From: Bugula neritina
Lineage: Eukaryota > Animalia > Bryozoa
Direction of reading: 5' to 3'
Length of the DNA: 64,000 nucleotides
NCBI GenBank assembly: GCA_964035545.1
Contig: OZ037770.1
Location: 9,120,973-9,184,972, forward strand
The first letter of the stretch is position 1, and each line of letters opens with the position of its first letter. This document shows, one piece after another, positions 1,631 through 36,559 of the stretch. The position numbers and the translations under genes were made by a program. The notes beneath the pieces were generated by a model that did no database searches, was not told the origin of the DNA, and saw only the letters and a list, made by a program, of their open reading frames with translations.

Positions 1631-1909
1631 TGTAGTAATTCGTGCAATTACTGTGCGTGGGTTCCTAGCTTGTAATTATAGTCTATTTATCCACATCAAT
1701 AAAGTATTTAAGTAAGATTCCACAAGGTTTATTTACTACTAAGTATATTGAAAGATACAAAAAGTACGCAGATTAGAAAAACTACATCTTTACTTGTTTA
1801 GTATGCTCTCTCTATTCTACTGCTACTACTACTCGCTGAGGGTTATCACATGACGCACTCTGATTGGCTAAAGGGGCTTGGGGGACGCGCGTATTACGTA
1901 CTCACTACA
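1631..1909 (-). repeat. E1 3' LTR (279 bp)
   Basis: Direct repeat of 8957-9233 (one substitution and a 2-bp indel seen); TGTAGT...ACTACA termini. Confidence 0.97.
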
Positions 1910-2269
1910 CCGCCCCCCCCCCCCCAGAAAGCCCTACTTTCTGATAACACAGATACAGTTAATACTAAGACATAAAACGTTACAAAAACTATAGAACTGA
2001 GAGAGCGTATGGCACACCAAAGAAAGAACATGACTATGTACAGTAATAAAAAAAGGTATATAAAAAAAATATATAACAATAAAACACACGATGACACTGA
2101 TGGGAGGCACTTGTAAGTGAATAGTCCATAGAGTTAGAGATGCATACTTGTAGGTTACCATAAGATTGTCACACTGAGGAATTGTTTGTTAGCACCGGGC
2201 ATGAGAGGGGTTCGAGATGGGGCACCACCTGCGGTACCATCACGGGTAGGGAGTTTGGGGATGTCGTCT

Positions 2270-3358
2270 TCAAGCGCTTCCTTTCATTCGGGCTACAGAG
2301 GCAGAGAGGGCCCGGAGTTCAGACGCGGCGGCAGAGATTCTCGGTGTCAGTCTTTGCACTTCTTTCTCTAGTTCTCGTATCCGCTCTTCTGCTTCTCCTA
2401 GGTTCTGGGCGGGGGCAGAGTGCCGGTTGGGAGACGAAGATGGCCAGCGCCGTTTACGAGAAGGCCTTGGGGAGACGGGGGGAGAGGGACGCCATCGCTG
2501 TGGTACTTCGATGCGTCGTAGCACGACTCTGGGTATGGAGTCGGGGCGGGGCACTGTGCGTGCGGGGGGTGATGGGCGGGGTACGTGTGGTCTCCTATAT
2601 CCGGGTGGTTTAGGGCAGGGTCCTTGCGTGATGGTCCTGGGTGCGGGGAATTCCTGACGCAGCCGTTCGTAGCGAGCTGGGTCTGATATGAACGGTCGGA
2701 TGAGATCAAGGAATTGTGGAAAGGAGGGTTCGTCGACTTCGAAAAGGTGTCCAACGTGGCATCCCATAGTTCGCTGGTGACGGAGGATGTAGTCCCTGTG
2801 GTAACTATATTCACCACAGGGACAAAAGTTGGTGAAATAATGTTGGGGAACGTGAACTCGAAGTCTTCGTGGGGTGGTGAAATGAACCTGGCATAAACGG
2901 CAGGTGGTGCATTGGTCGTCTCCCTTATGTTCTCGTATAAGTGCTTCTGTGTCTGGGGTAACCCAGCATGACTGGTGTAAGAGTGCCTCCAGAAGTGTAG
3001 TGGGAACGGGTTCCTCGTTCCAAGCCATTTCCAATGACGGCATGTCACAGGGAAGAGGAGAGAGAGCGGTATCTAAAAGAGCAGAATTACTGTTAGATCG
3101 AGTGTGATCTTTACACCATAATTCTGATGACAACCGACTGTTACTAGTCTGGGAGTCATACATCTTTTTAGATAGCACTTGAGGGACTGAGTCGTGTCGT
3201 GTAGACTGACAGAGAGACATAGTGTCAAGCTCCAGATCTAGTAGATCGTCGGCCATCGTTATGTTCTCGTCGCCTTTCACGTAGGACTCAGTCCCCAGTA
3301 GTTGTGATTCAATCAAGGCGATTGAATCAGAACTGACTGATGGTAGACTTGTTTCCAT
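2270..3358 (-). CDS. E1 ORF3: 362-aa zinc-finger / PxVxL / coiled-coil accessory protein (intact)
   Basis: CRLC-x12-H-x3-H (C2H2) then CPC-x12-H-x5-C; PRVVLRRI; RPSRKRR; heptad coil LGEAEERIRELEKEVQRL; homologous ORFs in E2 and E3. Confidence 0.85.
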   Translation of the reverse strand: METSLPSVSSDSIALIESQLLGTESYVKGDENITMADDLLDLELDTMSLCQSTRHDSVPQVLSKKMYDSQTSNSRLSSELWCKDHTRSNSNSALLDTALSPLPCDMPSLEMAWNEEPVPTTLLEALLHQSCWVTPDTEALIREHKGDDQCTTCRLCQVHFTTPRRLRVHVPQHYFTNFCPCGEYSYHRDYILRHQRTMGCHVGHLFEVDEPSFPQFLDLIRPFISDPARYERLRQEFPAPRTITQGPCPKPPGYRRPHVPRPSPPARTVPRPDSIPRVVLRRIEVPQRWRPSPPVSPRPSRKRRWPSSSPNRHSAPAQNLGEAEERIRELEKEVQRLTPRISAAASELRALSASVARMKGSA

Positions 3359-3423
3359 GAGTGGAAATGTTAGCTCAGAGCAAGCTTACCTGAGAACCCG
3401 GTATTTGTAATCATACTCAGCGT

Positions 3424-6400
3424 TCAAGCTTGGATGTCCGTGGATTGAGTTTGAATGCGTCTGCCCTTGACAACGTCAGCGTAGGAAAAGACTGGGCAGC
3501 GTGGTTGTTGCGCGCGACTGGAACTATTTGCCCCGGGTGTAGTAGTTTTGTTTACTACTCCGCCTTCGCAAAAGTTGAGATTTCCGTGGTGTTCACAACT
3601 CCCACGCTTTGCTGCCAGTCCTTCCGTACGGCGCCCAGCTGGACTTTCGTAACTGCCGTTTGTAACACGGTCACATACGAAGTCTTTCAGGTATGCTGGG
3701 GGTTGTCTAGTACGCTGTCCCCGTCCCAGGGGAGGTGACGTATCAGCTGGAGATGGGGTTGTAGTTGCTGGTTGGGGCGGTGTGCTCACTGGTGGGCTAT
3801 TTTGCTCTACCTGTGGCGTTTCTAGCCCGCCGTTGATGATGGTGTTTCCCTCTCCGCTGTTGTCTCCGGATGGAGCCCCTCCCACGGGGGGGGTTTTGCA
3901 CTTCCGGACGCGGACGCGGACGCGGATCCGGAAGTGGTGGGGGTAGACTTGGTACTGGGGGCGGTGGGCGCACTTCCGTTGGTAGGAGTGGCGTTTCCTG
4001 CCTCACCAAGTCCTCCTCCCGCGGCACAACCACTTCGTATTCTGGTCCATGCCGTTGCCGCCCGCGCGTTGCTGTCTGCCTCCTGGGCTTCAACAACGGG
4101 GGGGCTGCTCCTGCTGCTCCTGGGCTAGCCCAATACGGTTTCAAGCGAGCTTCATTCTGGACAGAGACCTGTCCAGATCGCTCCAACTTGTCTGTATGAT
4201 TGGGCATTGCCTCAACTACAACGTAGGGTCCCACAAACTTAGGCTGGAGCTTAGCCGCTTGTCCTCGACGCCTACGGTAGTTGATCATCCACACCCAGTC
4301 CCCAGTTTGATAGAGGGGTGGTTCCTGAGAGTCCTCCTGCCGTACCTGCCACTGCTTTGCTTGCAGTATTTCGTGTGCGGCACTCAGGTCCTCTATCAAT
4401 TTACTGGCATACTCGTGGATAGTATAGTCCTGCTCTGGGATGTGGTATGTGAGGTGGTCAGGCACTCGCGTCTCCCGACCGAGTATCAGGAGGTTAGGGG
4501 TTTCCCCCGTACTGGTGTGTGGTGTAATACGGTAGGCCCGCATTACTTGCGGTAGTACCGTATCCCATTCCTCCTGACCCCGGCCGAGGAGCAGACTGCG
4601 CAGTGCATCGCCCAACATGCGGTTGTTGCGTTCCACCACCCCATTGCCCTGAGGATGGTACGGGTTGGTCCTGCTTTGGTTTACTCCCCAGAGGCGGCAG
4701 AGGTCGCTCAACAGTTGGGACTGGAATTGAGCCCCCTGATCCGAATGTATCTGTTCGGGTAGTCCGAGATAGCAGAATACATTTTGGTCCAGCACCCTGG
4801 CCACCGTGGGGGCGGACGCATCTGGAATAGCCAGGGCGTCCGCCCACCGTGTAAAGTGGTCGGTTAATACTAGGATCCAACTGTGTCCTCTGGGGGTGAC
4901 GGGCATGGGTCCGACTAGGTCGATAGCTACCACCTGCCATGGCCTCCCAGCATATAGCCTACGCCGTCCCGCTTCGCCAGGGAGACGGCCATGCTTGCTG
5001 GCCTGGCAGATTTCGCATTGTTTGACTTTACGCCGTACCTCACGCTCCATGCCGGGCCAGTACCACCGGAGCTGTAACTTGAAGAGCACCCTGCTTACCC
5101 CGGCGTGGGCCTGTTTGTGGGTGTCCCATACTAACTCCCAGCGTATGGCGGCTGGGCAGATCACCCGCTTTCTTCCGTACTGGCTGTTGTGGGCGGCCAC
5201 TGTGATGGTCAGCAGACCATCTGGCCCGATCCGCAGCGAGTCCCAACGTTGACAGTACGACCGTAACTCGGTGCATCCCTGCCGCAGCTGTTCTTCACTG
5301 GGTCGTCGCCCCTCCTTTTTGGCGCGATATACGTCGGCTACTACTCCGGGGAGGTTCTCCTGGAGTCTTCGTAGCTCCCTGACGTTATCAGCCAAGACAG
5401 GATTGGCACGGAGGCGTTGGATAGCCTCCGGGGGCGTAGTGGCCTTCCGTAGGAGTTGACCCTGGTCCCAGTCATACTCCGTTTCAGAGTGGTTCAATGC
5501 TCTCAACTCGGATTTTGGGGGACCTCCATCCCTCTTCTCGATGTTGAGACACTGCTTGCACCCCTCGTCCGGTCGCCGGCTCAGTCCATCAGCATTGCCG
5601 TGTTTCTTACCGGGCCGGTGCTCGATCCGGTAAGAGAACTCGGCCAGGACCTCGAGCCATCGGGCGACTTGGCTGGACGGTTCTGCTCTCTTGCATAACC
5701 AAATCAAGGAGGCGTGGTCGGTCCGCAAGCGGAACTTCCTGCCGTATAGATAAGGTCTGAAATGCTTCACCGACTTGATTACTGCCAGCAGTTCCTTTCG
5801 GGTAGTGCAGTAATCTCGTTCAGTGGGTGAGAGAGACTTACTGTAATAGGCCACGACCACTTCGCGGCCCTCCTGCACCTGGGACAGCACAGCGCCGACA
5901 TTTTGGTCACTGGCGTCGGTATCGAGAATGTACTCCAGGGCAGGGTCTGGATAGGCTAGGATAAGGGCCTCCAGCAGGCGGCCCTTGAGGCAGTCGAACG
6001 CTCTCTGTTCGACGGGAGTCCACTGCCAGGTCACCCCCTTTGCGGTGAGCCGGTTTAATGGCTGCGCTACCCCCGCAAAGTCTGGTATGTATTGCCTGTA
6101 ATACCCTACCAGCCCCAGGAAAGCCCGTAGTCCGGTCAAATCCTGAGGGGTTACCCAATCTTTTATAGCTTGTACCTTTTCGGGATCCGTCGCCACACCG
6201 TGACGGCCGACGACGTGTCCCAGGTACTTCACCTCTGGCTGCAAGAGAGCGCACTTGGAGGGTTTGAGCTTTAGATTGGCACCTCGGAGTCGATCGAAGA
6301 CCTCCCGCAGACGGATGACGTGTGTCTGAAAGTCTGGGGAGATCACGATGACGTCGTCGAGGTATACCAGCAGTGTCTTCCAGTGGATTCCACTGAGGAC

Positions 6401-8894
6401 CTGTTCCATGAGCCGCTGGAACGTGGCGGGGGCAGAAGTCAGTCCAAAGGGGAGGACTTTCCACTTCCATAAGCCGTCCCGCGTGATGAACGCCGCCTTC
6501 TCCTGGGCGTCCGGGCTGAGGGGGACCTGCCAATAGCCGCTCAACAAGTCTAGCGTACTGAAGTACTTGCTGCCGGCTAAGGCGTCCAGAGATTCGTCGA
6601 TCCTGGGTAAGGGGTAGGCGTCCTGTATGGTCACGCTATTGAGCTTGCGATAATCCACACACAACCGCCAACTGCCGTCTTTCTTTCGGACCAGGACGAC
6701 CAGCGAGCTCCACGCACTATGTGCTGGCTCGATGAGGCCGCGGTCCAAAAGATCCCGGACTTGTTGGCTGACCTCCTTTTCCTTCTCGGGTCCCAGCCTC
6801 CTAGTGGGCTGTCGAATAGGGGTAGTCCCTGCAGCTAGCGATATCTCATGACGGACGGCCGTGGTCAGGCCGACGTCATGGTCCCCGCTGCTGAACACGT
6901 CGCTATAATCACGTAGCAACTGAGCCATGGCCTGGCGTTCCACGTTGCTCGTGCAGCCGTCACACGCTGCCTGGTATAGCTCTTTGACATGTGGTGGGAT
7001 GGTCCCCCGCCTAACTGACAGGCTCTGTTGGGGACCTTCCGTCGCAGCTCCCAGCGACGACCCTATATCCTCCTCCTGAACGGAGTGGAAGCGACCCAGC
7101 ATGGATCCTGACGGCAATTGTACCGCTTCGGAGAAGGGGTTGACACACTGCACCAAGATCTCTCCTCAGTCAGTCAGCCGGTTAAGACTGCTGGCGAGTT
7201 GGATTCTTGTGTGTGCACCTTCGACAACCCCTAACCCCGAGAGTTGGCTATTGTTCACTCTGCAGTGAACGGTAGCCCGGGAGCGGCCGGGTATAGTACA
7301 GTTCCGTACTACCTGCACACCTCCCGCTAGGGGACGACCGAACTTGTCGACACAGGCGAGCTCCCTGCCGTTCATTAGCATGGCTGACTTGCTAAAGTCA
7401 ATATGGCACCCGTGTCTCTTCAAGAACGGCATCCCCAGTATGGCATCTTCTTCAAGTTGGCTGATGACGAAGGTTTCCTGAATGACCTGGTCGCAGACGC
7501 GCCCAGTCAGTTCTATGATACCGTAGAAAGGAATCCGTGACCCGTCAGCTAGGGTGCCCGGTTCCCCGGTATAGGGAGCTAAGGCTCCCCTCTCCCTAGG
7601 GGGGAGGGTGTCAAAGACCCGACGGCTGAGGAGATTAGTGGTACACCCGGAGTCTAACAGAAAGGTGACAGCTTTGCCAGCCACCTTTCTTGGCAAGAAG
7701 TAGCTGCCTCCGTGAGGTTGTACCCGTACTCCCCCAGCATGCTCGGTCTCGGCCGAACGGGGCTGTGCCCGTTTGTTCCGCGGTTTGCGGGGCCGGTGAG
7801 AGTTTCCTTGCGGGGGGGGGGGTGTTTTGATCCCCCCCGATGCCCTGAGGGGCCTCGCTGGTCTGCTCCATTACTGGTAACGGACCGAAGCGGTTGGTAA
7901 GAGGCAGAGAGAAGGGGTCTCGTGGTCGACCCGATTGGCTGGTTCGGCGGGGTGTTTGCCACTGATGGGGGGCGTGCCGCTGGGCCCGTACAGGCTCCTG
8001 GCGACACCCACCCCGTTTTCCTCTCGGTTTGGGTCCGCGGAGCTCTGGAGGTCTCCGGGGAGGTTGAGGTTTCTGCTGCCGTTTGAATCGTGGGCCGCTT
8101 GAGCGGCGGTGTCCCTGGATGCCGCATTCCCAGCGTTGCATAGTGGGTCTGGGGGGTTTTGTGGCTGGTCTCTTATATTTCCTGGAGTGGTTGTATGTTA
8201 TGGTCGCCACCAATTGTCCCAGTTTAGTCATCAAGCGGTCCATCTCCATCTCTATAGGGGGGTTAGTGGTAGCGGCAGCTAGGCGGACCGGGTGGTCTGG
8301 CTCCCTAGGGGTCCGTGGGGTAGTCTCCTCCGTCTTGTAGAGTTGCTCGGCCCCAGCGTAGGCCTTGTTTTCTTGGATTGCGGCCTCGATTGTGGTTACT
8401 CCCTTGGCTTGTAACTGGTGGTGGAAGTCCAAAGAGTTGAGGGACTGTACAAAAGCTTCGAATGTATAGTGCCGTCTGTGTGTTTCTGGCAGATCGCTCT
8501 ACGCGGTCCGTGCCAGTCTCTGCACCAGAGTGGCGTGATCAGGAAGCGGTGTACATGTCTTGCGGAGCAGTCCCTGCAGCCTGGACTCGGCGACGGCAAC
8601 GGGTATGCCAAAACGGGCCCGTAGTGTAGCAATGATCCCATTTACGCTAGATTTCCACCCGTACGGCTTGGCTTCTTCCATCAGTGCCATTCGCAGTTTC
8701 GCAAGAGTTACTCTTGGCGGCCATCTTGTAATGGCTGCAACTTCATGGAACTCTTGAATGAACTGTTCAACATCTTCAAGGCCCGTGAATACGGGAACCT
8801 CTAATGTATTCCTATATGCCTCCTCTCCAGCTCTGAAAGGGCCTATGATAATATTTCGCTCACATTCTTCCATTGAAGTTACACTTTCGTCCAT
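3424..8894 (-). pseudogene. E1 gag-pol, disrupted
   Basis: gag from ATG 8894 with in-frame TAG at 8499-8501; frameshift near the G run ~7812-7822; TGA at 7166-7168 where E2/E3 have CGA; RT-RH-IN ORF 3797-7156; frameshift near the G run ~3890; degenerate knuckle WECGIQGH. Confidence 0.9.
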
Positions 8895-8937
8895 GATGTT
8901 CTAATACTTTCTCATTGTCTTTATACAGTAGCTAGTG

Positions 8938-8955
8938 ATCCCACCGCTGCCACCA
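8938..8955 (-). other. Primer-binding site, tRNA-Leu type
   Basis: TGGTGGCAGCGGTGGGAT, 1 nt from the 5' LTR; complementary to the metazoan tRNA-Leu 3' end ...AUCCCACCGCUGCCACCA (recalled); identical to the E3 PBS at 27999-28016. Confidence 0.85.
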
Positions 8956-8956
8956 C

Positions 8957-9233
8957 TGTAGTAATTCGTGCAATTACTGTGCGTGGGTTCCTAGCTTGTA
9001 ATTATAGTCTATTTATCCACATCAATAAAGTATTTAAGTAAGATTCCACAAGGTTTATTTACTACTAAGTATATTGAAAGATACAAAAAGTACGCAGATT
9101 AGAAAAACTACATCTTTACTTGTTTAGTACGCTCTCTCTACTACTGCTACTACTACTCGCTGAGGGTTATCACATGACGCACTCTGATTGGCTAAAGGGG
9201 CTTGGGGGACGCGCGTATTACGTACTCACTACA
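8957..9233 (-). repeat. E1 5' LTR (277 bp)
   Basis: Direct repeat of 1631-1909, adjacent to the PBS. Confidence 0.97.
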
Positions 9234-10712: not shown

Positions 10713-13700
10713 TTAGTTTAGCTGGTAAAACAGAACTTTCTTCTCACTGTATCTAGGTACAATCAGAGTGTCTTTATACACATGGAGATCAAACACAAAA
10801 CTCTTAGCTCTATCAGTTGGATCTTCTACTTTGGACAGTTGTGTACCTGTAACAGGAAATGATGTATCAGTGTGTCATCACTAGTACATAGCATAGTATA
10901 TTTTATAGTGTGAGACTGTGAGAAATACTAATATATTGATAACAGTAGTTAACTAACTAATGTAAAACTAACCTGTCTCCACATCCAGTATCCAGATGGT
11001 GGTTTTACTGCTGTAGTTAGTCACAAGAATATATTTACTTCTATAGCAGGTCACACCTTCTGGTTCAGATACATCCTTGCATGTCCAGATGACTTTCTCT
11101 GTTGTCAAGTCTAATTTAAATACTTGAGAGGAACCACAGTCAGAAACTACTACACAATGTCTGTCTGCTGCACATATTGCTATAGCACTATCACTGAGTA
11201 GAGGGCAGGAGACATGTTTAATTACCTTCCCAGTAAGAGAGTAGATTGTCAGTCTTTTACTGTGTCTATCAGGGACCACAACCTGGTCATCAACAATAGC
11301 AAGATTATTTGCACCACTACTATTATCATGGTGAGACCAGCTGGTCACCTGTTTCCCAGTAAGATCATACACATGTATTTTCCAATTAGCACTTAAGATG
11401 CCGATACGCTGTAGAGCATACAGCTTATCTCTATGTACTGTGACTCCAGTTACAAAGGAAGTAAGAGAAGTAAATGACTTTGAAACACTGAAACTCTCAT
11501 CTATTCTGCCTATCCCTGCACCACTCAGCCCTACATAAGTGTTACTCCCATATTTACAGACAGAATAACAGTAACTAGAAACATCAACAGACTGTACAAG
11601 TTTGAGAGATTTAGAAAGAGTAGAAGTTGTCACTCCTTGATCTAAACTAATAATCATGTCTGCTGCAGGAACCAGGTCTACTTCTATGTCTCTCTTCTCT
11701 TCTACAATATACATGTGAATATGTGTGTATGTGTGTATACTTATATATAAGTGAGTATGTATATATAATATGTATGTCATATAAAAGTGAGTATGTGTAT
11801 ATATTCTATTAATAGAAACTCTGAGTAAACCTACACACATGACTATTTCAACAAATATTCAAAATTTTCAACCAGTAGTTTCACACGTATGAAGGTCACT
11901 TTTCAGATAATATACTGAATAATAATGTTCTTATATTACATTATATAATGCAGATACATGATTATTATAAATTGCATGCAAGTGATTATCACAAATTTTA
12001 ACCAACACCAGTAATATAAAAGTGTGTCTACATTAGAACATCATAAGCAATCTAGAGTCTAGCACACTAACCTAACTAACAATATTACATTACATCACTA
12101 TAATAGAGACATTACCAAACTTAATGCTTCTAATAAAACCCACAACAGTAGTGAAAGTAATCTACAGTCCAGTATACTAACCTTTGACCTTTAGAGACAT
12201 GACATCACATAGCTCTAGTTTAGGTATCTCAACAGATATCAGTCTCTGTATTCTCTCTTTAATCTCTGCAAATCCTTCAACCAGATCCACCTGTAACATG
12301 TGACTACATATGAACAGTTGCTAAAGATCTACTTCATATCTGTCTTCTGCTTATAATATATATTACTGGGAGTACGTTTCGCTCATTTGTATAATAAATA
12401 ATTTGTATAACATGCGCTATACACTATTATAAAATGTATGAGGCAGGCTATTTTAATACACCATACACACCTGCACCATATAATAAGCATTATATAGCAA
12501 TAGGTGAAGACAACTCCACTCAAAAAGAAATTTAAGCCTTGTGTTTAATTGCAAAATTTACACAAGGAAATGTCAAAATTACCAGTTGCATTATACATGA
12601 AGCACAAATTTAAGGTGACAAACAGATACTAATATAAACTATAAATAGCACTTTATTTAAGTTTGCTTCAAGTCTGGTTTAAAACTCTACAACTTCACGT
12701 GAGATGACGAATTAGTATATTATCATGACATCATAACTATACAGCTATGACATCATAACTATACAGCTATGGTGTCATAGCTTTTAGATTGTTTACAGTG
12801 TACTGTTACTATACGGCTATAACAGAAGTCATCAACCAAAGCTGGTCTATAGAAAATGAATAAAAACAACAGCTTTTATCTATTATATTGTAGTTTTTAC
12901 TTTCTCTTTTGAGAAGGGCTAAAGCGTTTGGCTTAGTAAACACAAAGTCATGGGTTCAAACCCCAGTAAATACCATTGGTGATGTCAGGAAGAGTATCCA
13001 ATCAAAATTGCTCATATGTCACATATGAATACGTCTTTAGCTTTAAAAAACCCCTTCGTTCTGAGTTTCTTACAGGGATAGTGAGAATAAACTCATGTTT
13101 AAGAGAGCTATAATAAAAAATAAACTATGATCAGAGATAAACTACTAAAATAGCTATTCTCCGAAACCCATGAAAATACAATAGGAATATATTTATTAGA
13201 CAGACGATGAACACTGCTCACCTGATGGTTTTGTTTAAGTTGAGCTTCTATTTTCAATCTACTGTTACTCAGTTGAGACAAAACAGTTCCAACTTCTCTT
13301 TCCATGTATCTGTTCAGTTCCTCTTTAGTCTTCCTTCTACTAGCTAAAAATTCCTTCTCCAGTTTCTCATACTTAAGTCTCACTTCAGTCAACTACATCA
13401 TACATTGTATCAGCACATTGTAGAAAATGGACAATACATAAGAGAAAGTGTTTCAGAGTTGATTGTGAAAGAAAACAACATTGTAAAAAAAAAGTGTTTT
13501 AATTTACTCTGAATAGTAGCTAGTCACATAGCTGTTACTCTTAAGTATTAGTATTGCAATGTTTTACTAACACCTGACTACAGAATGTAGATTACAGAGT
13601 AACACAAAGTATTTTCTATAAACACACAACCTGTTCATCACGCTGTGTATGAAGAATATTCAGCAATTCCTCCGTCTCATTATCAAAGTCTGACACAGTT

Positions 13701-17316: not shown

Positions 17317-18234
17317 TAATCACGCGTGCAGTAAATTCAAAATAATAACACTATTTATAAACGTTGCAGCGGCATTTACCCATCTGGTGGGCCTCATTCA
17401 GAGTTATCTTTCCAAACAAAACCTGGGAGCAACTAATACAATGTTCCGCTGTATCTAAATGACCCCTTTCTCACGAATTTCTATAGGTCACGAGAACAGC
17501 TTGGACCCCGTTTTGTGGCTGATGTATGTGTGTATAGGAACCAAATCACCAATTTCAACTGATCCGTGAGTTGAATCTGGCATTCTAATATGACAGGAGT
17601 TGACGTTTTAGACCTGTCGCCTAGTGAGTTACAGAGGGAGCCCTGTATATTGTTATGATTTTTAGATTTAGGGTCGATGTGCAACCAAGAGAGTCTATTT
17701 ATCACTAGAGAAACTTCACCGAGATAAGTCGAGTAGATATCGTTATATTTTAATACAAGAATACATAATAAAATCTAATATACAACAGTAAAAATACACA
17801 CGTCTATTTAATTTACAGCACTATCTTCAACTGAGCTAGTAGCGCGAAGCTGCTACTATTACTCATAAGCAGCTTAGCTAATTGGCTAGTATATCGTTCC
17901 GGGTCAATACCCAACCCTGCGTATTGTGCTGCTGGTAGCTCCACGAGCCACCACACTGCCCCCTCCAGCAGAAAGCCCTCTTTCTGATAAAAATATAATT
18001 CACATAAAAAAAACTTATACATCAGTGGGCAGAGAGAGAATGATACAAAAGTATATACAAGAGCCAACTGATTAGAGATACAGGTATATATAAAAAAAAT
18101 ATATGCACAATGAATGATACACGTATGTAAAAGAAAATCCTATTTACATGTAGAGTACGTGCCACCGAAACGGGGGGGGAATGCCACAGAGAGGTAGGGG
18201 GGAAAAGTGGTATGGAATTGGAGATGGACTCAGG

Positions 18235-19307
18235 TTAGTCGTGGGCCGCCCGCCTCATGCGTTTAATAGATTCCTGTAGATACTTGAGCTCACTGGATGC
18301 AGCATGCACGCGCGGTGCCAGTCTATACACTTCTTGCTCCAGGTCACGGGCCCTAGCTTCTACTTCACGTAAGTTGCGGGCCAGAGGGGATGAACGAGAG
18401 AAGGTCTGCTGTCTGTGTCGTTTCCGTTCTGAAGATGGAGGTGGGGGAGGGAGTGTATACGCATTTGTGTCTACCCTCTGTAGTACGACACGGGGAAGTG
18501 TTGCGGTTGACGTATAGGACTGGGAGGTGGGGAGTTAGTTGATTTTGTAGGCTTATCCATGGTTTCAGAGATGATGGGTCGAGGGGAGGGAAAGCCTTGC
18601 TCCAGGCGAGACAGCCGAGCTGAGTCAGTGATGAGGGGTCTGATGGCGTTAAGGAATGCGGGATATGATGCTTGGTCTACTTCATAGACGTGTCCTTGAA
18701 AACACTGCATAGTGCGTTGGTGACGCAGTAGATAATCACGATTGTAACTATATTCTCCGCAGGGGCAGAACGTTCTGATGTAATGCTGCGGCAAGTGGAC
18801 TCTCAGCCTACGATGGGTTGTAAACCGCTGCTGACATAGGCGGCATTCGCGGTTACTGTCACCTCCTCTATGAGTCTTAATCTCTTTCTCTGTGGCAGGG
18901 GTAATCCAGTTGGAGGTTGCTTCCAACTGGGGTGGCAGTTGTCCGGTTGTGGAAGTTGGTGGGGCCGGCTCTGGGTCCCATGCCATCTCTAGAGAAGGCA
19001 TGCCCGGAGAGACGGGCGCGAGTGTGTCTACAAAAGTAGAATTATTGTTAGATCGCGGTGGATCTTTACAACATAATTCTAGTGACGGTCGACTGTTACT
19101 AGCCTGAGAGTCACAACTTTTAGAATGCACTCGAAGAACCAGTGAATCATGTGTGGACTGACCAAGAACAGTGTCTAGCTCCAGGTCTAACAGACCGTCG
19201 GCCATTACAGTGTCTTCATCGTCCTTCACGTGAAACGTGGTTCCCAGTAATTCTGATTCAATCTGTTGAATTAGTTCAGAATTTACTGGCATCGAGCCCG
19301 TTTCCAT
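18235..19307 (-). pseudogene. E2 ORF3 (zinc-finger protein) with 1-nt frameshift near 18500
   Basis: ORF 19307-18471 holds both fingers; the shifted frame continues PRVVLQRVD...NLREVEARARDLEQEVYRLAPRVHAASSELKYL...AAHD to TAA 18235-18237. Confidence 0.85.
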
Positions 19308-26393: not shown

Positions 26394-28030
26394 ATACTCA
26401 AACATGAAAAATGCTCAGCTAATGCACTCAATGACCCCAAACTTTCTGTTGCATAAATCCATTTCCGAACTAGGATGCCCTGGTGTGTAACTTTTCAAAA
26501 ACTTTCTGTAATATACACTCAACAATTACATGGCTTTGTGTTGTTGCACAGGAACGTACAATTTTAAGCAAATCTTTAGCCCACAAACAGAGGCAACTTA
26601 TTTCGTATAATAGTTATATTATATAACCCTTTAGCCTGCATATAAAGGCAATTAAGAACAGAGCCAAATAGAGGCAATTTATTTTTCATAATATTTACAG
26701 AAAATAAAGATCAATTTCAAACATACAATCTAGCAGGAAATATGGAACTAGTTCATGTGTAGAGACAAATAAAGTGATAAATCATGTTTTGTGGTTATCT
26801 GTCAAAATACATAACTTTATAACAGCTCACTGTGTAAACTATCAGTATATATAACTATATTATGTAAAATATTAGCTTGTCACACAAAAGCAGTAAATTG
26901 AGATTAGCATCAACAATATAGTAAAATGAATGTTGCAGTAATGGTTGATATTTGATGGTAAATTATAGTAAACATTGTGATGTACTAGAATATCGGTATG
27001 TAGTAAATGTAGACTTAGAGTTACCATATAATCACATTGATCTCTATACGACCTTCAATATAAATCAGGTTAGATATATAAAAAGTTACAGGCTAATACC
27101 TTAAAGTCATGCAGGTTGTGAAATAGGGTTGGTACAAGTGAAAATAAATTGGCGCTTGGAATTATTTAAGTTTAGGTGTAAATGTTAGTTACTGTGACGT
27201 CATACGTCTTTCCACCCCATGCATAGCTGAATAAGTGAGTTACTGGGACGTCACACAGCCTGCCACACTGTATCATAGCTCCATGTTGAAGAACTCAGTC
27301 TACAGAGTCAACTTTGAGAATCATCTAGAAATAACAGACACAGTGTATATGTAGAAGTTGTACATCTTAGACATATCACCACAAATATGTACATTAGTAG
27401 AAAACACAGAGTTGAGCACCAGATGTATTCAAACAGAGTCTAGTGTGATAAACAATATAATAAATGTACCACAAGATGGAATAATATCCTGTCACACACC
27501 TGTTTAGTTTAGCTGGTAAAACAGAACTTTCTTCTCATCCCATCTAGGTACAATCAGAGTGTCTTTATACACATGAAGATCACACACACTACTCACAGTT
27601 CTATCAGTTGGATCTTCTACTTTGGACAGTTGTGTACCTGTAACAGGAAATTATGTATTAGTGTGTCATCACTAGTACATAGCATAGTATATTGTGGTGG
27701 CTCGTGGAGCTACCAGCAACACAATACGCGAGGTTGCGTATTGACCCGGAACAATGTATTAGCCAATTAGCTAAGCTGTTTGATAAGTAATAGTAGCCGC
27801 TTCGCGCTACTAGCTCAGTTGAGGATAGTGCTGTAAAATTAAATAGACGTGCGTATCATTACTGTTGTACATTGGAGTTTATTATGTATTCTTGTATTAA
27901 ATATAACGATATCTACTCGACTTAACCGGTGAAGTTTCTCTAGTGATAAATAGACTCTCTTGGTGGCACATCAACCCTAAATCTGAAAACTATAACAGTG
28001 GTGGCAGCGGTGGGATAGTGTATATCAAAG

Positions 28031-28897
28031 ATGGAGACTGAAAATGCTAGAATGCAACCACCCCCAGTAGAAGGTGAGCGTAGAAATGCTGTTAATCCTG
28101 TGAATCGTGAAGGAGAAGAAGCTTATAGACATTGCTTGAAAGCTCCCACCTTTACTGGGTCGGAAGATGTCGAACAATTTATACAAGAATTCAGAGAAGT
28201 AATGGAAGTTGCTCAATGGCCGCATAGAGTAGCCCTCATTCAATTGCGGAGAGCGGTGACGGAGCAAGCCAAGCCGTACGGAGTGGGAACGGACGTAGAC
28301 GGCATACTGGCTGCGCTGCGGGCCCGTTTTGGCACCTCCGTCATAGACGCTAGGACCAAGCTGGAGAGATTGTGCCGCACCCCGCGGACCTCGCTGCAAG
28401 AACATGCCGCGACGGTGAAGAAGCTGGCGCAGATTGCATATAGCGACCTGCCAGCACAACACCAAGAGCGTTACACCTATGACGCCTTTGACCAGTCCCT
28501 AAACGACCTGGGCCTAGACCATCACCTACGAGCTAAAGGGATAACCAGAATAGAGGATGCCCTGAAGGCTGGAGAAGCTTACCTGTTGGCTACCCAAATG
28601 CATCGAGCACAAAGGAACCCACCAGTAGTTGGAGTCAGCGCTGCCAGGGCTACGACAGGCTCCGAAGCCCTCCCGCTGGAAGCCGAAGTGGACCGTATGG
28701 TAGAGATGCTGGGACAACTGGTAACCATTCTGGCCGGTGCTGGCCCCGGTCAGGCCTTGCGGATGCCCCCAACACCTGTGGGGCAGGGCTGGAGTAGCGC
28801 TGATCAGGACCAGGGACAGAAAGGACGACCCCAATACCAGGAGGCGTTAAACTGTCACGGCCCGCGGACACTCTCCCTCCCCGCGGGCCGCAACTAA
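28031..28897 (+). CDS. gag: E3 Gag (288 aa, no recognisable CCHC knuckle)
   Basis: Starts just after the PBS; PTFTGSEDVEQFIQEF capsid-like motif homologous to E1 gag. Confidence 0.85.
   Translation: METENARMQPPPVEGERRNAVNPVNREGEEAYRHCLKAPTFTGSEDVEQFIQEFREVMEVAQWPHRVALIQLRRAVTEQAKPYGVGTDVDGILAALRARFGTSVIDARTKLERLCRTPRTSLQEHAATVKKLAQIAYSDLPAQHQERYTYDAFDQSLNDLGLDHHLRAKGITRIEDALKAGEAYLLATQMHRAQRNPPVVGVSAARATTGSEALPLEAEVDRMVEMLGQLVTILAGAGPGQALRMPPTPVGQGWSSADQDQGQKGRPQYQEALNCHGPRTLSLPAGRN
28846..28890 (+). other. Candidate -1 programmed ribosomal frameshift signal
   Basis: G_TTA_AAC in gag phase, 5-nt spacer, 10-bp stem CGGCCCGCGG/CCGCGGGCCG; the -1 frame is open into PR; same signal in E2 near 23896-23941. 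Confidence 0.75.
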
Positions 28898-31800
28898 AGG
28901 AGTATGGTGGAACACGCCGTCGTCTGTCCGTACGGACACGGCGGAACATTCTACCCGAGTGGCAGGTACCACGCAGGACTAGTAGGCCCGCACAACGGCC
29001 CAGTACCTTTTCCCTGCCACTCGCTAACCGGTTTCACCGGTTACCTCGGGAGGAGGAGCCCGCCACTGAAATGGAGCCAGAAGGCCCAGTGGAGAGGCCC
29101 AAACCCCGCCGGCACCAACCTCGCCGCCGGAAGCCCCGTAAACCACGGGTGAAACCCCCGCCGTCCTGTCAAACCAGGACAGCACATGCGGGGGGGGTGA
29201 AAGTACAACCACATGGAGAGAGCTATTTCCTACCCGGAAAGGTGGCCGGCAACGCCGTCACTTTCCTGCTCGACTCCGGTTGTACTACTAACCTTCTCAG
29301 CCGTAGAGTCTTTGAGGCACTGCCACGCCGGGACAGGGATAGAGTACGACCATATACTGGAGAACATGGCACCCTGGCAGACGGGTCATGTATCCCCTTT
29401 TATGGTATTATCGAGCTCCCTGGGCGTGTCCGAGATCAGGCTGTACAGGAGACCTTTATCATAGGTCAACAGGAGGAAGATGCTATCCTCGGAATGCCCT
29501 TCTTGAAGCAACACCAGTGCCGAATAGATTTTAGTAAGTCGGTGGTGCTGATGGGCGGGCGAGAACTCGCCTGTGTGGATAAGTTTGGGCGTCCTCTGAT
29601 GGGCGGTGTTCAGGTAGTTCGAAACTGCACCGTACCCGGACGCTCCAGAGCTACTATCCACTGCCGAGTGAACAGCAACCGGATAGCCAGGCTCGGGGTC
29701 GTTGAAAGCGCGCACGAAAAGATCCAACTCGCCAGTAGTTTAAACCGACTAACTGAGCGAGGGGAGGTCTTAGTGCAGTGCGTCAACCCCTTTACCGAGC
29801 CCATTGAGCTCCCAGCTGGGTCAATGCTGGGCCGGTTCCATTCCGTCCAGGAAGAGGACGTGAGCCCGTCGCTGGGTGACGCGACGGAGGCACCCCCCCG
29901 ACACCCTATTCAGGGACGAGGGGCAGTCCCGACACATCTCCGGGAGTTATACGAAACAGCCAGTGGCGGCTGCGCGAGTAACAGAGAACGCCAAGCTATG
30001 GCCAAGTTACTACGCGACTACGGTGATGTGTTCAGCAGCGGAGAGAATGACGTGGGACTGACTGGAATTGTCAGACACGAAATACCGCTGACTGCAGGGA
30101 CAGTCCCTGTCCGGCAGCCCACGCGCAGGCTGGGGCCGGAGAAAGAGAAGGAGGTTAGCCGACAAGTACGGGATCTTCTGGACCGGGGACTGATAGAGCC
30201 CGCCCATAGTGCGTGGAGCTCGCCAGTCGTACTGGTCCGGAAGAAAGACGGCAGTTGGCGGTTCTGTGTGGACTACCGCAAACTCAATAGCGTAACCATA
30301 CAGGACGCCTACCCTCTACCTCGTATTGACGAGTCATTGGACGCCCTAGCCGGCAGCAAGTACTTCAGTACGTTAGACTTGCTAAGCGGCTATTGGCAGG
30401 TTCCTCTGAGTCCCGACGCCCAAGAGAAAGCGGCGTTTATCACACGGGACGGTTTGTTGGTAGTGGAAGGTGCTGCCCTTCGGGTTAACCTCCGCCCCAG
30501 CCACCTTCCAGAGGCTGATGGAACAAGTCCTTAGCGGACTCCATTGGAAGACACTGCTGGTCTACCTCGATGATGTCATCGTAATCTCTCCAGACTTCGA
30601 GACACATGTCAGTCGTCTGCAGGAGGTTTTCGAGAGACTCCGAGGTGCCGGTCTTAAGCTCAAACCTTCCAAGTGCGCTCTGTTGCAGCCGGAGGTCAAG
30701 TACCTGGGGCACGTTGTCGGTCGAAACGGCGTGGCAACGGATCCCGAAAAGGTACGGGCAGTAGAAGACTGGGTCACCCCTCAAGACTTGACCGGACTCC
30801 GGGCTTTCTTGGGGCTGGTAGGGTATTACAGGCAATACATACCAGACTTTGCGGACATAGCCCAGCCGTTAAACCGGCTTACCGCAAAGGGGGTGACGTG
30901 GCAGTGGACTCCAGTCGAACAAGAAGCGTTCGACCGCCTCAAGGGCTGCCTCCTAACGGCGCCCATCTTGGCCTACCCAGACCCCACTCTGGAGTACATC
31001 CTAGACACGGACGCCAGTGACCAGAATGTTGGCGCTGTGCTGTCACAAGTGCAGGAAGGCCGAGAGGTAGTAGTAGCCTACTACAGCAAGTCTCTCTCCC
31101 CCGCTGAACGAAATTACTGCACTACCCGCAAGGAGCTGCTGGCAGTAATCAAGTCAGTGAAGCACTTCAGACCATACCTATATGGCAGGAAGTTCCGGCT
31201 GCGTACGGATCATGCCTCGCTGATCTGGTTGTGCAGGAGAGCAGAACCCTCTAGTCAGGTCGCCCGGTGGCTCGAAATCCTAGCTGAATTCTCGTACCGG
31301 ATCGAACACCGACCGGGCAAGAGACACAGCAATGCGGATGGGTTGAGTCGCCGACCTGACGGAGGTTGCAAACAGTGTCTCAACATCGAGAGGAGGGATG
31401 GAGGTCTCCCACGATGCGAGTTGGAGACGCTGGCTCATCACGGAGCACCGTTTGACTGGGATCAAGGTCAACTCAGGCAAAGAGTAGATGAGTCCCCGGA
31501 GGATGTACAAAACCTCCGCGCCAACCCTGTACTGGCCGGTAAGGTTCGAGAGCTGAAGAAGCTCCAAGAAGAGCTGCCTGGAGTCGTGGCAGACATCTAC
31601 CGGGCCAAAAGGGAAGGGCGACGACCCAGCGAGGAACGCATACGACAGGGATGCGCCGAGTTCCGGCTATACTGTCAGCGTTGGGACTCGCTGCGGATCG
31701 GGCAGGATGGGTTGCTAACCATCTCTCTAGCTGCCAGCGGCAGACACCCGGAAAGGAAGAGGGTAGTCTGCCCCACAGCCATCCGCCGTGAGTTGATTTG

Positions 31801-33472
31801 GGATACTCACAAGCAGGCCCACGCAGGGGTCAAGCGAGTGATATCCAAATTACGACTCTGGTGGTATTGGCCGCAGACGGAGCGTGACGTCCGGCTCAGA
31901 GTCAAACAGTGTGAGATCTGCCAGGCCAGTAAGCATAGCCGCCCCCCTGGTGAAGCAGGACGGCGGAGGCTATATGCTGGTAGGCCCTGGCAAGTAGTCG
32001 CTGTAGACATGGTCGGACCCATGCCCCTGACCCCCAGAGGCAATAATTGGATCCTAGTACTAACCGACCACTTTACTAGGTGGGCGGATGCTCTGGCTAT
32101 CCCAGATGCATCAGCCCCAACAGTGGCCAGGGCACTAGACCAACATGTATTCTGTTATTTTGGGCTTCCCGAACAGATACACTCTGATCAAGGCGCTCAA
32201 TTCCAGTCTCAACTGATGAGCGACCTTTGCCACCTCTGGGGAGTAAATCAGAGCAGGACCACCCCCTACCACCCTCAAGGTAACGGGGTGGTGGAGCGCA
32301 ACAACCGGATGCTAGGTGATGCGCTCCGGAGTCTCCTCCTTGGACGAGGTCAAGAGGAATGGGATACGGTGTTGCCGCAAGTCATGCGTGCATACCGTAG
32401 CACCCCACACACCAGTACTGGTGAGACCCCAAACCTCTTGATGCTCGGGAGAGAGACTCGTGTCCCTGACCATCTCACCTATCACGTTCCAGAGCAGGAT
32501 AACTCAGTCCATGAGTACGCCAGTGAACTAGTGGAACGGATGAAGGCCGCACACGAGATACTGCGTCAACAGCAGTGGAAGGTGCGGCACGAAGATTCCG
32601 ATGAACCACCCCTCTATCAAAGAGGAGATAAGGTGTGGATGGTCAATTACCGTAGGCGCCGCGGACAGGCTGATAAGCTGAAGCCTAAGTTCGTAGGCCC
32701 CTACGTGGTCGTCGAGGCTATGCCCAATCATACGTACAAGATTGAGCGCTCAGGACAGGTGTCTATCCAGAATGAGTCTCGCTTGAAACCGTATTGGGCT
32801 AGCCCTGACGGAGTGGGAGAAGCCCCCCCGTTGTTAGAGCCCAGGAGGCAGACAACGACGCGCGGGCGACGGCGGCATGGACCTGAATACGAAGTGGTCA
32901 TACCGCGGGAGGAAAACTTGGTGAGAGAGGAGCGGCAGCTTTTGTCAACAGAAGCGTGTCCGCCACCGCCAAGTCTAATTCCATCACTTCCAGAAACCGA
33001 GCCGGTTCCGGAAGTGCAAACCCCCACGGAGGGAGGGGCTCCATCCGGAGAACAAGAAGAGGTGACCATTAACGGTGAAGTAGAGACGCCATTAGAGGCC
33101 CCTACTAACGAGCCGGCAAGCGTGTCACCCCCCCTAGAAAGGGGACAGCGTACGAGGAAGCCCCCACCGTATTTGAAAGACTTCATATGTGACTGCATTA
33201 GAAGCGGCGCACATGAAAGTCTAGGGGAAAACCGTACGATGAAATGTTGGAGTTGTGAACCCCACGCAAATATCAACTTTTGCGAGGGCGGAATAGTGGG
33301 AGGAATTAATGCGCGTAAAGCAAATAGTTCCGACCTCGTGCCTCAGAAACGATGCTCAGCCTTTTCTTATGCTGACATCGCCAAAGGCAGACGTATCTCA
33401 CAACCAGCTCCAACCTTACCAAGAACGTTGAGTATGGACATTCATACCGAGTTCCCAGGTAAGCCAGTATAA
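28846..33472 (+). pseudogene. pol: E3 pol (PR-RT-RH-IN) with a frameshift/stop in RT near 30460
   Basis: ORFs 29071-30534 and 30470-33472; GLWKWK is coded as ggtttgttggtagtggaag (extra T plus TAG); catalytic motifs otherwise intact. Confidence 0.9.
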
Positions 33473-33489
33473 GTCTTGTATTCCTATTC

Positions 33490-34392
33490 ATGGAAACGGG
33501 CTCGATGCCAGTAAATTCTGAACTAATTCAGCAGATTGAATCAGAATTACTGGGAACCACGTTTCATGTGAATGACGATGAAGACACTGTAATGGCCGAC
33601 GGTCTGTTAGACCTGGAGCTAGACACTGTTCTTGGTCAGTCCACACATGATTCATCAGTTCCTCGAGTGCATTCCAAAAGCTGTGACTCTCAGGCTAGCA
33701 ACGGTCGACAGTCACTAGAATTATGTTGTAAAGATCCACTGCGATCTAACAATAATTCTACTTTTGTAGACACACTCGCGCCCGTCTCTACGGACATGCC
33801 TTCTCTAGAGATGGCATGGGACCCAGAGCCGGCCCCAACAACTCCTACCACCAGGCAACTGCCACCCCAGTTGGAAGCAACCTCCAACTGGATTACCCCT
33901 GCCACAGAGAGAGAAATCAGGACCCATCAAGGAGGTGAGAGTAATCGTGAATGCAACCTCTGCCAGCAGCGATTCACAACCCACCGCAGACTAAAGGTGC
34001 ACTTGCCGCAGCACTACATCACCACTTTCTGCCCTTGCGGAGAATATAGCTATAATCGTGATTACCTACTGCGGCACCAACGTACTATGCAGTGCTATCA
34101 AGGACATGTCTATGAAGTAGACGAATCATCATATCCTGCCTTTCTCAACGCCATCAAACCACTCATCACTGACTCAGCTCGGCTATCTCGCCTGGAGCAA
34201 GGCTTCCCTTCCCCGCGACCCATCATCTCTGGAGCCGCTGATAAACCTACACAGTCTGCTAACTCTCCACCTCACGGTCCTATACGCATGCCGCATACCT
34301 TTCCTCGTGTCGTACTACAGAGAGTAGACACAAATGCGTATACACTCCCTACTACTCATTCCCCTACCTCTCTGTGGCATTCCCTACCGTAA
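33490..34392 (+). CDS. E3 ORF3 zinc-finger protein, C-terminal coiled coil deleted
   Basis: CNLC-x12-H-x3-H, CPC-x12-H-x5-C, PRVVLQRVD; relative to E2, sequence after NAYTLP jumps to the 3' UTR. Confidence 0.8.
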   Translation: METGSMPVNSELIQQIESELLGTTFHVNDDEDTVMADGLLDLELDTVLGQSTHDSSVPRVHSKSCDSQASNGRQSLELCCKDPLRSNNNSTFVDTLAPVSTDMPSLEMAWDPEPAPTTPTTRQLPPQLEATSNWITPATEREIRTHQGGESNRECNLCQQRFTTHRRLKVHLPQHYITTFCPCGEYSYNRDYLLRHQRTMQCYQGHVYEVDESSYPAFLNAIKPLITDSARLSRLEQGFPSPRPIISGAADKPTQSANSPPHGPIRMPHTFPRVVLQRVDTNAYTLPTTHSPTSLWHSLP

Positions 34393-35694
34393 TGGTGGCA
34401 CATACTCTATATGTAGATAGGACCTTCTCTTGCTTATTACTTAGTGCACGATATATATACCTGTATATTTTTTACCAGTTGTTGTTTTTTTTTTATATAC
34501 TTTTATGCTGTTCTCTTACCCCCCAACGAAGTATACGTTTTTTTTGTGAATCTTATTTTATCAGAAAGTGGGCTTTCTGCTGGAGGGGGCAGTGTGGTGG
34601 CTCGTGGAGCTACCAGCAACACAATACGCGAGGTTGCGTATTGACCCGGAACAATGTATTAGCCAATTAGCTAAGCTGTTTGATAAGTAATAGTAGCCGC
34701 TTCGCGCTACTAGCTCAGTTGAGGATAGTGCTGTAAATTAAATAGACGTGCGTATCATTACTGTTGTACATTGGAGTTTATTATGTATTCTTGTATTAAA
34801 TATACCGATATCTACTCGACTTAACCGGTGAAGTTTCTCTAGTGATAAATAGACTCTCTTGGTGGCACATCAACCCTAAATCTGAAAACTATAACAATAT
34901 TTTATAGTGTGAGACTGTGAGAAATACTAATATATTGGTAACAGTAGTTAACTAACCAATGTAACACTAACCTGTCTCCGCATCCAGTATCCAGATGGTA
35001 GTTTTACTGCTGCGGTTAGTCACAAGAATATATTTACTTCTATAACAGGTCACACCTTGTGGTTTAGATACATCCTTGCATGTCCAGATGACTTTCTCTG
35101 TTGTCAAGTCTAATTTAAATACTTGAGAGGAACCTCTGTCAGAAACTACTACACAATGTCTGTCTGCAGCACATATTGCTACAGCACTATCCCCGAGTAG
35201 ACGGCAGGAGACATGTTTAATTACCTTCCCAGTAAGAGAGTAGTTTAATGTTAGCTTATTATGTGATAGGAGCAGCAAGAGAATGTTTTTGTAGTTTGTC
35301 ACATAGATCTAGACTGATTTATTATTGAACTTCATAAGTGTACATAAACATAGCAAATCATATATCCTGTTGCTGACCTGACACGACTCTTGCAACAGGG
35401 TTAAAATAACAGCACAGATGACAAAACAGGTTTCTTGTTCTGATTCACTAATTACTACAACATTACATCCTTTATGTATTTCAAAGAAAAGATACTATGT
35501 ATATGTAAAACTGATTACAATAATTTAACTGTTTACACTATGTAGCAACAAAATATAACATAAAATCTTCTGTGCCTCTGCTCTACTATGTATTAATAAC
35601 TTTATAAATCTGCTAACTAATAATAAATGCAGGCACACAAATAAGATCTGGGAACACCTAGAGGGGTAGCCTTTTCATTAAACTTCAATTTTAG

Positions 35695-36540
35695 TTAGCC
35701 AGTTTGCGTGCCCAGTGCGTGAACTACATAATCACCGTATCTATCTGGTGGTTTACGGAGAGGTGGGTCAGGTTTAGCAACTGACATACAATCAATGCAT
35801 TGCCTACAATGTAATTCAGCTTGTTTATCAATTTCTGGCCACCATACCTTGGACCCCAATCTCTGTTTAGCTTTCACCATACCCTGATGACCTTCATGTG
35901 CTAATTGGATCAAGTGGTTGCGGAAACACACTGGCACAACAACTTTATCATTTCTTAGCACTACGTTTTGCACCTCACTAAGTTCACCTGACACTGCCTT
36001 ATAGCCTATGCTACAACTGCTGAAGTCATTATCCTGTATTGCGTTACCCAACTGCTGAATTTCGGCGCACTGCTTAGACTTAGCTACAACATCACCCCAA
36101 CTAAGTGCTATTGGCAAAGACTCTTTGGCAACTGACTCCACAACACTATCACCTACAACGGTATCTATTAATGGCACATAATCTAACCTAGTTGCCATTC
36201 TTGACAATGGGTCAGCATCATTTTCCACCAAACTATCTAATTTAACTTCATTCTGTGAACCTACTGACTGCGCTACTGGCTGAGTATTTTCATCAATGTG
36301 AAACTTGGCGGTGTACCCCCTAAGTTTTCCCAGGCCTTGAAAAACTTCTGGAAAACTGTTCGTAACTTCTTTTGGTGCCTCAGGTAAAACACTGCACACA
36401 ACATTATCACTACATGATATCAGAGAAAGACTGGTGGCAGTTTTAAAACTGAGCAAACACTTTGCCACACCGTTAAACACATAAAATTCAGCCTTCGCAT
36501 GCTTGCTGTTACAATAAACATCTGCACAAAACTTGCCCAA
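35695..36540 (-). pseudogene. E4 pol remnant lacking RT/RNase H and integrase core
   Basis: FPEVFQGLGKL..QPVAQ jumps to ADPLSR; HEGHQG..WWP..CIDC (IN zinc domain) jumps to the RKPPDRYGDY tail. Confidence 0.8.
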
Positions 36541-36559
36541 AATATCTAGTTGCTTTACA

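Follow-up and report, generated by a model that had tools for sequence, protein, structure and literature searches.

For their transcription, gypsy elements are commonly assumed to rely on transcription factors of the host. Accessory genes are known among them, and have been described in the Tat and fungal chromovirus clades (PMC2774666). The closest described parallel to the gene considered here is CERV of the Caenorhabditis elegans element Cer1, which is encoded by a spliced RNA of five exons that has exons in common with gag, and consists of an H, an M and a G domain, possibly including a C4 finger (PMC10309623). According to the same account, CERV is needed for RNA export, not for transcription, and has no homology outside nematodes (PMC10309623). 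Another precedent comes from bdelloid rotifers, whose LTR retrotransposons carry family-specific non-env ORF3s that are described as GDSL esterase, DEDDy exonuclease, CC and TM types (PMC5408684). Apart from CERV, the RNA-export factor, the non-env ORF3s described in animals are either enzymes or membrane proteins. Do animal retrotransposons also encode their own activators or anti-silencers? The ORF3 presented below opens this long-standing question to a direct test.

Three Ty3/gypsy insertions in a repeated gene array

The window, that is, the whole 64,000-nucleotide stretch of Bugula neritina DNA analysed here, is animal DNA of ~35% GC in which several GC-rich LTR elements accompany a repeated gene array. 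Three of these elements, E1 to E3, are recent, precise Ty3/gypsy insertions. E1 lies on the minus strand at 1631..9233, bounded by a 3' LTR of 279 bp (1631..1909) and a 5' LTR of 277 bp (8957..9233) that are identical at 276 of 277 aligned bases. Next to the 5' LTR is the primer-binding site, which we take to be that of tRNA-Leu; gag and pol (PR-RT-RH-IN-SH3, 3424..7870) are broken by stops and a frameshift. E2 (minus strand, 17651 to approximately 24100) is 5'-truncated and belongs to the same LTR family as E3, which occupies 27693..34896 on the plus strand. The LTRs of E3 (27693-27997 and 34593-34896) agree at 303 of 304 positions, and its pol is split over two frames with a break near 30500. 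Both E1 and E3 have two LTRs (TG...CA), a primer-binding site, a polypurine tract and a target-site duplication. In Pfam domain order, pol reads PR-RT-RH-IN followed by an SH3-like tail, and among solved structures its reverse transcriptase is nearest to Ty3 (Ty3 Gag-Pol E 2.6e-122 vs foamy 2e-36).

All three elements entered a TATAT word and are flanked by a 4-bp ATAT duplication, found at 1627-1630/9234-9237 (E1), 27689-27692/34897-34900 (E3) and at the single intact end of E2 (17647-17650). The corresponding empty sites are seen in paralogous array units at ~58937, 10898 and 39122. These units span 7-17 kb, with exons at 10968-11858, 42768-43529, 53229-54104 and 60610-61173, and all LTR elements of the window lie inside the array. 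Its long exons encode a beta-propeller-like protein (weak PQQ_2 match, E 0.002), presumably NHL-like. A fourth, short LTR element at 35244-37855 (minus strand) represents another lineage and lacks the zinc-finger ORF3; it has 226-bp LTRs that are 97% identical, gag, a CCHC knuckle and protease, and its pol is internally deleted. A repeat of ~740 bp at 556-1290 and 43736-44469, which contains several GATCGATC words and whose ends appear to be inverted, is possibly a small non-autonomous DNA transposon. Directly 5' of the polypurine tract, both element families share an inverted repeat, CAGAAAG ... CTTTCTG, at approximately 1925-1943, 17968-17986 and 34563-34580, which forms a hairpin in the centroid fold of E1.

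An additional open reading frame downstream of pol

Downstream of pol and ahead of the polypurine tract and 3' LTR, E1 carries a sense-oriented ORF3 of 362 aa that is whole (2270..3358, minus strand). Homologues sit in the same place in E2 (approximately 18235 to 19307, minus strand) and E3 (33490..34392, plus strand), as an earlier note on this DNA had claimed for all three elements, and when the window was searched with a profile in all six frames, these three copies of the core were the only ones to be found. The copy in E2 has a frameshift near 18501 that leaves its basic patch and coiled coil in the other frame. In E3, ~210 nt are deleted at 34350 relative to E2, and basic patch and coiled coil are gone. 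The earlier note, which had the coiled coil lost in E3, is right about E3 and overlooks the break in E2.

ORF3 is thus broken in two of three copies and whole in E1 alone, where it is indeed the only intact ORF. As evidence of selection we reject this: the gag-pol region of E1 has at least 4 breaks in ~5.4 kb, and arithmetic from this density gives ~0.8 expected breaks in the 1.09 kb of ORF3 and a chance of ~0.45 that there are none.

In E1-E3, ORF3 lies in the -1 frame behind the pol stop with a short overlap, in which no slippery heptamer is seen. All three elements share a splice-site-like word, CAG/GTAAG, at the pol/ORF3 border (3384..3392 in E1, minus strand), which is a candidate site. 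Early in E3 gag there is also a donor-like AAG/GTGAGC (28071-28079, plus strand). Judged by their sequence, this and the border site could give rise to a subgenomic RNA; in E1, that scan turned up no equivalent of the gag site.

Architecture of the ORF3 protein

In the full-length model of E1 ORF3, residues 19-115 are disordered, the core is ordered and a long helix covers residues 315-361. The predicted disordered N-terminus includes an acidic, Leu-rich segment (residues 29-49; 3212..3274, minus strand), a candidate activation motif, and a second ATG (M35) in strong Kozak context. The core domain (residues 132-243; 2630..2965, minus strand) consists of a helix, a C2H2 finger, a CxC-x12-H-x5-C finger, a strand and two helices. 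After a Pro/Ser-Pro-rich linker follow a basic patch that resembles a nuclear localization signal (NLS) and may act as one (residues 298-305; 2444..2467, minus strand) and a C-terminal coiled-coil-like helix (residues 315-361; 2276..2416, minus strand), which is predicted in E1 and absent from E3. The motifs, both fingers and the loss of the coiled coil in E3 are present as first described. Of the proposal that the protein has neither signal peptide nor transmembrane segment, the latter half is borne out, the top 19-residue Kyte-Doolittle mean of E1 ORF3 being 0.68.

Finger 1 (C153-x2-C156-x12-H169-x3-H173; 2840..2902, minus strand) is a canonical C2H2 finger with profile matches at E 6e-5 to 1e-3, and its ligands are kept in 104/108, 109/109, 106/109 and 103/109 rows of the family alignment. 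Its helix is basic, with R or K at position 2 in 81, at position 3 in 71 and at position 5 in 70 of 94 rows; at position 6, hydrophobic residues prevail (V 44, I 14, L 11 of 94). Finger 2 (C179-x-C181-x12-H194-x5-C200; 2759..2824, minus strand) is of the CxC type, and the type and spacing of its fourth ligand vary in distant relatives. E1 ORF3 has no tandem of canonical fingers that would pass the zf-C2H2 Pfam cut-off.

The core folds confidently in prediction (AlphaFold2, 139 residues; pLDDT 93, pTM 0.83). Residues 31-81 of this model overlay tandem DNA-binding C2H2 pairs (Kaiso, SALL3/4, ZBTB20) at Z 3.2-3.5; the Kaiso overlay (Z 3.5, rmsd 2.9 over 57 residues) is weak. Foldseek against PDB and BFVD gave no match at E 0.001, the likeness to DNA-binding fingers (E 0.46 or worse) being at noise level, and the VIA structure comparison returned no Z of 5 or more. 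That the core is a new fold is neither proven nor excluded by these fold searches; as modelled, it appears to be a new, confidently predicted zinc-finger family. A two-copy complex prediction of residues 119-362 with zinc, in which the alignment was not used, scored 0.03 and speaks neither for nor against pairing.

Selection on the core

Can we tell whether this protein is maintained? Between E2 and E3, the core has a dN/dS of 0.08 (95% bootstrap 0.03-0.16; Nei-Gojobori, 113 codons), far from 1, the value near which the earlier note would have given up its claim. The whole of ORF3 gives 0.19 in the same pair, and pol 0.10-0.13. Values are higher for the N-terminus (0.29, 0.16-0.50; E1 vs E3) and for the coiled coil (0.34, 0.14-0.65; E1 vs the E2 piece), and the E2/E3 intervals for N-terminus (0.39) and linker (0.42) include 1. 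The ORF3s of E1 and E3 are 56% identical over 295 codons. In their fingers synonymous sites are saturated (pS 1.0, pN 0.16), in keeping with the many synonymous changes noticed there before; they are saturated in the whole core as well (pN 0.26), and owing to this saturation a core dN/dS of E1 vs E2/E3 is not computable.

Sequencing variation points the same way: among the contigs of run X1 over the core, 31 of the 40 variants listed (of 42) fall at third codon positions (p 1e-8), although the window may itself derive from run X1, and its variants are then not independent support. The ~110-aa core is under purifying selection. Because of the dN/dS of 0.08 and the excess of third-position variants, ORF3 can be regarded as a selected, element-borne, non-env gene. 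No homology to a viral fusion glycoprotein was found, there being no such Pfam match and no fold match listed, an absence that does not by itself speak against one; the model is that of a small zinc-finger domain.

A domain family of transposons and bryozoan genes

E1 ORF3 has no Pfam match at any cut-off. Sequence searches nevertheless retrieve 73 homologous clusters (at 90% identity) that are 49-91% identical to it, and the core alone finds 162 clusters at 50% identity, of which 150 are listed; 138 of these 150 representatives contain the core. One representative, P0151, with ubiquitin protease repeats, is a false match. A 109-row alignment shows seven constant zinc ligands, each present in 102-109 rows; also conserved are a Trp, a Thr and an Ile on the N-terminal side of the fingers and, on their C-terminal side, a Val-Asp strand. 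The eighth ligand is a Cys at five-residue spacing in 36 rows and varies in the others; all eight are in register in 45 of the 73 close homologues, some of which are fragments. Among the 109 members, a zf-C2H2_4 match at E 0.01 occurs in merely 10, and no chromodomain or PHD match to Pfam was found.

The overall layout is shared too. By our own simple scores, applied to rows with at least 80 flanking residues, an acidic-hydrophobic window occurs upstream of the core in 21/51 rows (4.2 expected by shuffling) vs 2/79 downstream, a basic patch downstream in 50/79 vs upstream in 12/51, and a coiled-coil-like window downstream in 40/79 (1.1 expected), mostly at the very end. The order of acidic/Leu segment, fingers, basic patch and terminal coiled coil is, as read from these sequences, a family trait down to ~30% identity. 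What had been proposed as a selected, element-encoded nuclear regulator holds for the first two attributes, and for the third it is the regulator-like layout that proves to be conserved across the family.

Further afield, a search of the ESM Atlas with the Bugula homologue returned top clusters that are unnamed or generic C2H2. Scans of metagenomes for loci of relatives gave 28 and 203 pattern matches, none of them confirmed, and no such locus was found in GTDB. Among viral contigs nothing was found for the integrase, and a giant-virus-like locus (L001, 22% identity) proved spurious.

Some relatives are joined to pol. By BLASTP, 12 of 242 core-bearing proteins also match pol, one of them (P0113) weakly. 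In the P0229 cluster, a single frame runs from PR-RT-RH-IN through a long spacer into the domain and on to a terminal helix; its Pol is 56% identical to that of E1/E3, and 5 of the 15 members listed (of 34) are 2373 aa long. P0189 joins the C-half of integrase to the domain in frame, and P0179, P0186 and P0217 start with the pol-tail motif. In P0137/P0227 and P0185 protease and domain are in frame with no RT, RH or IN between them; these are possibly non-autonomous elements that keep protease and ORF3 alone. Where integrases are 58-65% identical, the paired domains are 30-42% identical. To judge by these identities, the gap fits co-descent with pol and faster change of the accessory gene. Linkage to pol rests on the window and on the fused proteins, genomic context having been seen for none of the other ~230.

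A second group of relatives is annotated as host genes. When 30 proteins were looked up, the named relatives fell into four clusters, all from cheilostome bryozoans, with two genes belonging to Watersipora subatra and two, which are neighbours, to Bugula neritina. Their uncharacterised products (XP_067940963/4 and XP_067944745 from Watersipora subatra; KAF6040922 and KAF6040923 from Bugula neritina) have the same core domain as ORF3 once or, in two cases, twice; unlike ORF3 they are annotated as host, and they are ~34% identical at best. The closest homologues of ORF3 are many transposon-like copies, the 73 clusters mentioned above, and not host genes captured in a few copies, the outcome that would have spoken against the earlier claim. 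Three of the host-annotated proteins from Bugula and Watersipora (P0270, P0244 and P0182) share, within residues 1-70, a separate short N-terminal motif that is absent from the other proteins collected. When 84 core domains (123 columns) are placed in a tree, the host-annotated rows fall in two groups and so do the transposon-linked ones, an arrangement that the branches do not force; host monophyly is not rejected in an AU test with 35 rows (p 0.139). As the tree does not root the family, the element may have captured the domain from a host or the host may have domesticated it, and this zinc-finger family with host-gene relatives presents a case of one or the other. The in-frame Pol fusions, the bryozoan relatives and CERV as closest described parallel had all been missed in the earlier note.

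What might ORF3 do?

ORF3 is a conserved third gene of a Ty3/gypsy lineage that is probably bryozoan, and its product is predicted to bind nucleic acid in the nucleus. Our preferred reading, held at slightly less than even confidence, is that the element thereby encodes a nuclear protein that activates its own LTR or counters the silencing of that LTR; the data fit both modes alike. The protein would be made from a subgenomic RNA or released from a Pol fusion, and the basic patch would bring it into the nucleus. There, the Arg-rich helix of finger 1 might contact LTR DNA, the coiled coil would pair subunits so that two-finger units gain specificity, and the acidic Leu-rich segment could recruit co-activators. 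ORF3 would act in trans, and because of this proposed trans action E2 and E3 copies can lose it while the family keeps it.

What could it bind? The LTRs of the two element families had been considered unrelated, which does not hold: those of E1 and E3 share three words of at least 9 nt (0.33 expected), and their alignment score of 97 was reached in none of 500 shuffles, the highest of which scored 92. The words shared by the LTRs of both families are colinear and include a CCAAT box; they could be a common target of ORF3.

The 3' part of the elements also has its own history. E2 and E3 are 91-98% identical in pol and the N-terminus of ORF3 and 82-87% identical from where the core begins as far as the 3' LTR (33900-34600 in E3 vs 18900-17950 in E2). 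Synonymous differences amount to 35/78 from the core onward vs 120/665 in pol (p 4e-7), and a recombination breakpoint near 33900 is likely. Their LTRs are identical at 279/303 positions, with mismatches spread along the LTRs. Because identity falls from the core start onward, the core appears to travel with the 3' end that supplies U3. This mosaic fits the exchange of a finger-plus-U3 module, yet one crossover without selection suffices.

Taken further, a lineage of animal Ty3/gypsy elements might be 'complex' in the retroviral style, with its own transcription factor that is built on an undescribed double zinc-finger fold, binds the LTR and activates or de-silences it, alternates between free ORF3 and Pol fusion, and has a domain exchanged with bryozoan host genes. 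This composite picture is speculative, and we would sooner expect parts of it to fail than the whole to stand.

Several observations argue against an activator. For base-reading C2H2 arrays there is a rule on finger helix positions, and the hydrophobic position 6 of finger 1 and the atypical finger 2, as their sequences read, differ from such arrays. The finger 1 helix is near-invariant across families with different LTRs, and this fits a generic nucleic-acid or protein ligand equally well. ORF3 is, moreover, broken in two of the three copies here, and all ligands are in register in only 45/73 close homologues. By analogy, CERV, the nearest parallel and, among gypsy accessory proteins that combine an NLS, a zipper and a Cys finger, the best studied, would point away from transcription to RNA export. 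In-frame Pol fusions, finally, fit a tether more simply. The last two points lead to the two rivals that survive best.

In the first, ORF3 would be a CERV/Rev-like RNA factor whose fingers bind unspliced element RNA and whose coiled coil oligomerises, licensing export or blocking splicing. We consider this unlikely, though several features speak for it. The pol/ORF3 border of E1-E3 has the splice-site-like CAG/GTAAG word, Ser/Thr-Pro sites flank the basic patch, and in CERV itself a leucine zipper, candidate signals for nuclear import and export (NLS and NES), a Cys finger and a phospho-site that is essential have been described (PMC10309623). Residues 35-44 match the class 1a export-signal pattern, which recurs in 31/41 close homologues; the pattern is, however, not enriched there (24.7 expected) nor in distant relatives (9/45 vs 14.6 expected), and Pro replaces its last Leu in 6/29 rows. 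Nor does the 3' UTR fold better than its shuffles (z +1.9 in E1, -1.3 in E2), and the fold predicted for ORF3 is not that of the CERV domains H, M and G as these are described.

The second rival is an integration tether or chromatin reader, a domain that accompanies integrase, either fused or bound to it, and guides the pre-integration complex. Chromodomains steer integration in this way in chromoviruses. The in-frame arrangements with Pol (P0229 cluster), after the integrase C-half (P0189) and after the pol-tail motif (P0179, P0186, P0217) are what a tether would predict, and all three insertions duplicate ATAT within one repeated gene array. On the other hand, a 4-bp ATAT target can come from the integrase alone, as it does in insect errantiviruses, and the ORF3s of E1-E3 are not fused to Pol and lie in the -1 frame behind the pol stop. 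In the fusions, the spacer between pol tail and domain ranges in length from ~87 to 620 aa, and several fusions have retained an acidic segment of their own, as if an independent ORF had fallen into frame; for tethering, this segment is unneeded. Weighing both sides, a tether strikes us as rather improbable.

A negative or decoy role appears still more doubtful, and we would be surprised to see it confirmed. ORF3 would then repress its own family to control copy number, or titrate a host zinc-finger partner with the help of its likeness to a host family. Host-annotated genes of Bugula and Watersipora do carry the same domain, three sharing an N-terminal motif of their own, and a two-finger coiled-coil protein could compete; but the acidic Leu-rich segment, of a kind typical of activators, is kept upstream, and no repression motif was identified. 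That ORF3 is a functionless, captured host exon can hardly be believed: the host-annotated relatives, the two broken copies and an AU test that leaves the direction of transfer either way (p 0.139) would suit a neutral passenger, which is largely refuted by the selection signal, namely a core dN/dS similar to that of pol, the third-position excess in 31 of the 40 variants listed, and ligands kept at 30-42% domain identity where integrases share 58-65%.

Comparison with known systems

Activation or anti-silencing by ORF3 remains the reading we carry into the comparison. ORF3 is real and selected and apparently undescribed; as a kind, non-env ORF3s are already known. The earlier impression that it is not a described gypsy ORF agrees with the literature searched, in which no prior description of ORF3 or its domain was found, Repbase, Dfam, GyDB, supplements and most subscription journals lying outside that scope. 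The main text of a 2026 survey of env-carrying gypsy elements that covers Bryozoa is without 'zinc finger' or 'C2H2' (PMC13524379).

Like ORF3, CERV is a non-env accessory protein of an animal gypsy element; it is nuclear, and candidate NLS, coiled coil or zipper and Cys-based finger are found on both sides. Unlike CERV, ORF3 is a single ORF after pol with a C2H2 and CxC finger pair and an acidic N-terminus, a distinction drawn from the description of CERV, without sequence comparison. The rotifer ORF3s share with ours the position of env downstream of pol in metazoan LTR elements, and they differ in being described as enzymes or membrane proteins (PMC5408684); the words 'zinc' and 'finger' have no occurrence in the main text of that study. 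With the tandem C2H2 pairs of Kaiso, SALL3/4 and ZBTB20, ORF3 has in common a canonical finger 1 and the overlay of the pair. It departs from them by its CxC finger 2, a variable fourth ligand and the lack of a canonical inter-finger linker, and by flanking helices and a strand that are predicted to pack with the fingers into one domain.

Foamy virus Tas (PMC7828637) and VANC of VANDAL DNA transposons (PMC6719617) are described as regulating their own transcription or silencing, as we propose for ORF3. They belong to other element classes, and no sequence or fold link to ORF3 was found (the BFVD search gave no match at E 0.001), which makes the likeness one of analogy only. If our reading is true, ORF3 would be the animal LTR-retrotransposon counterpart of Tas or VANC.
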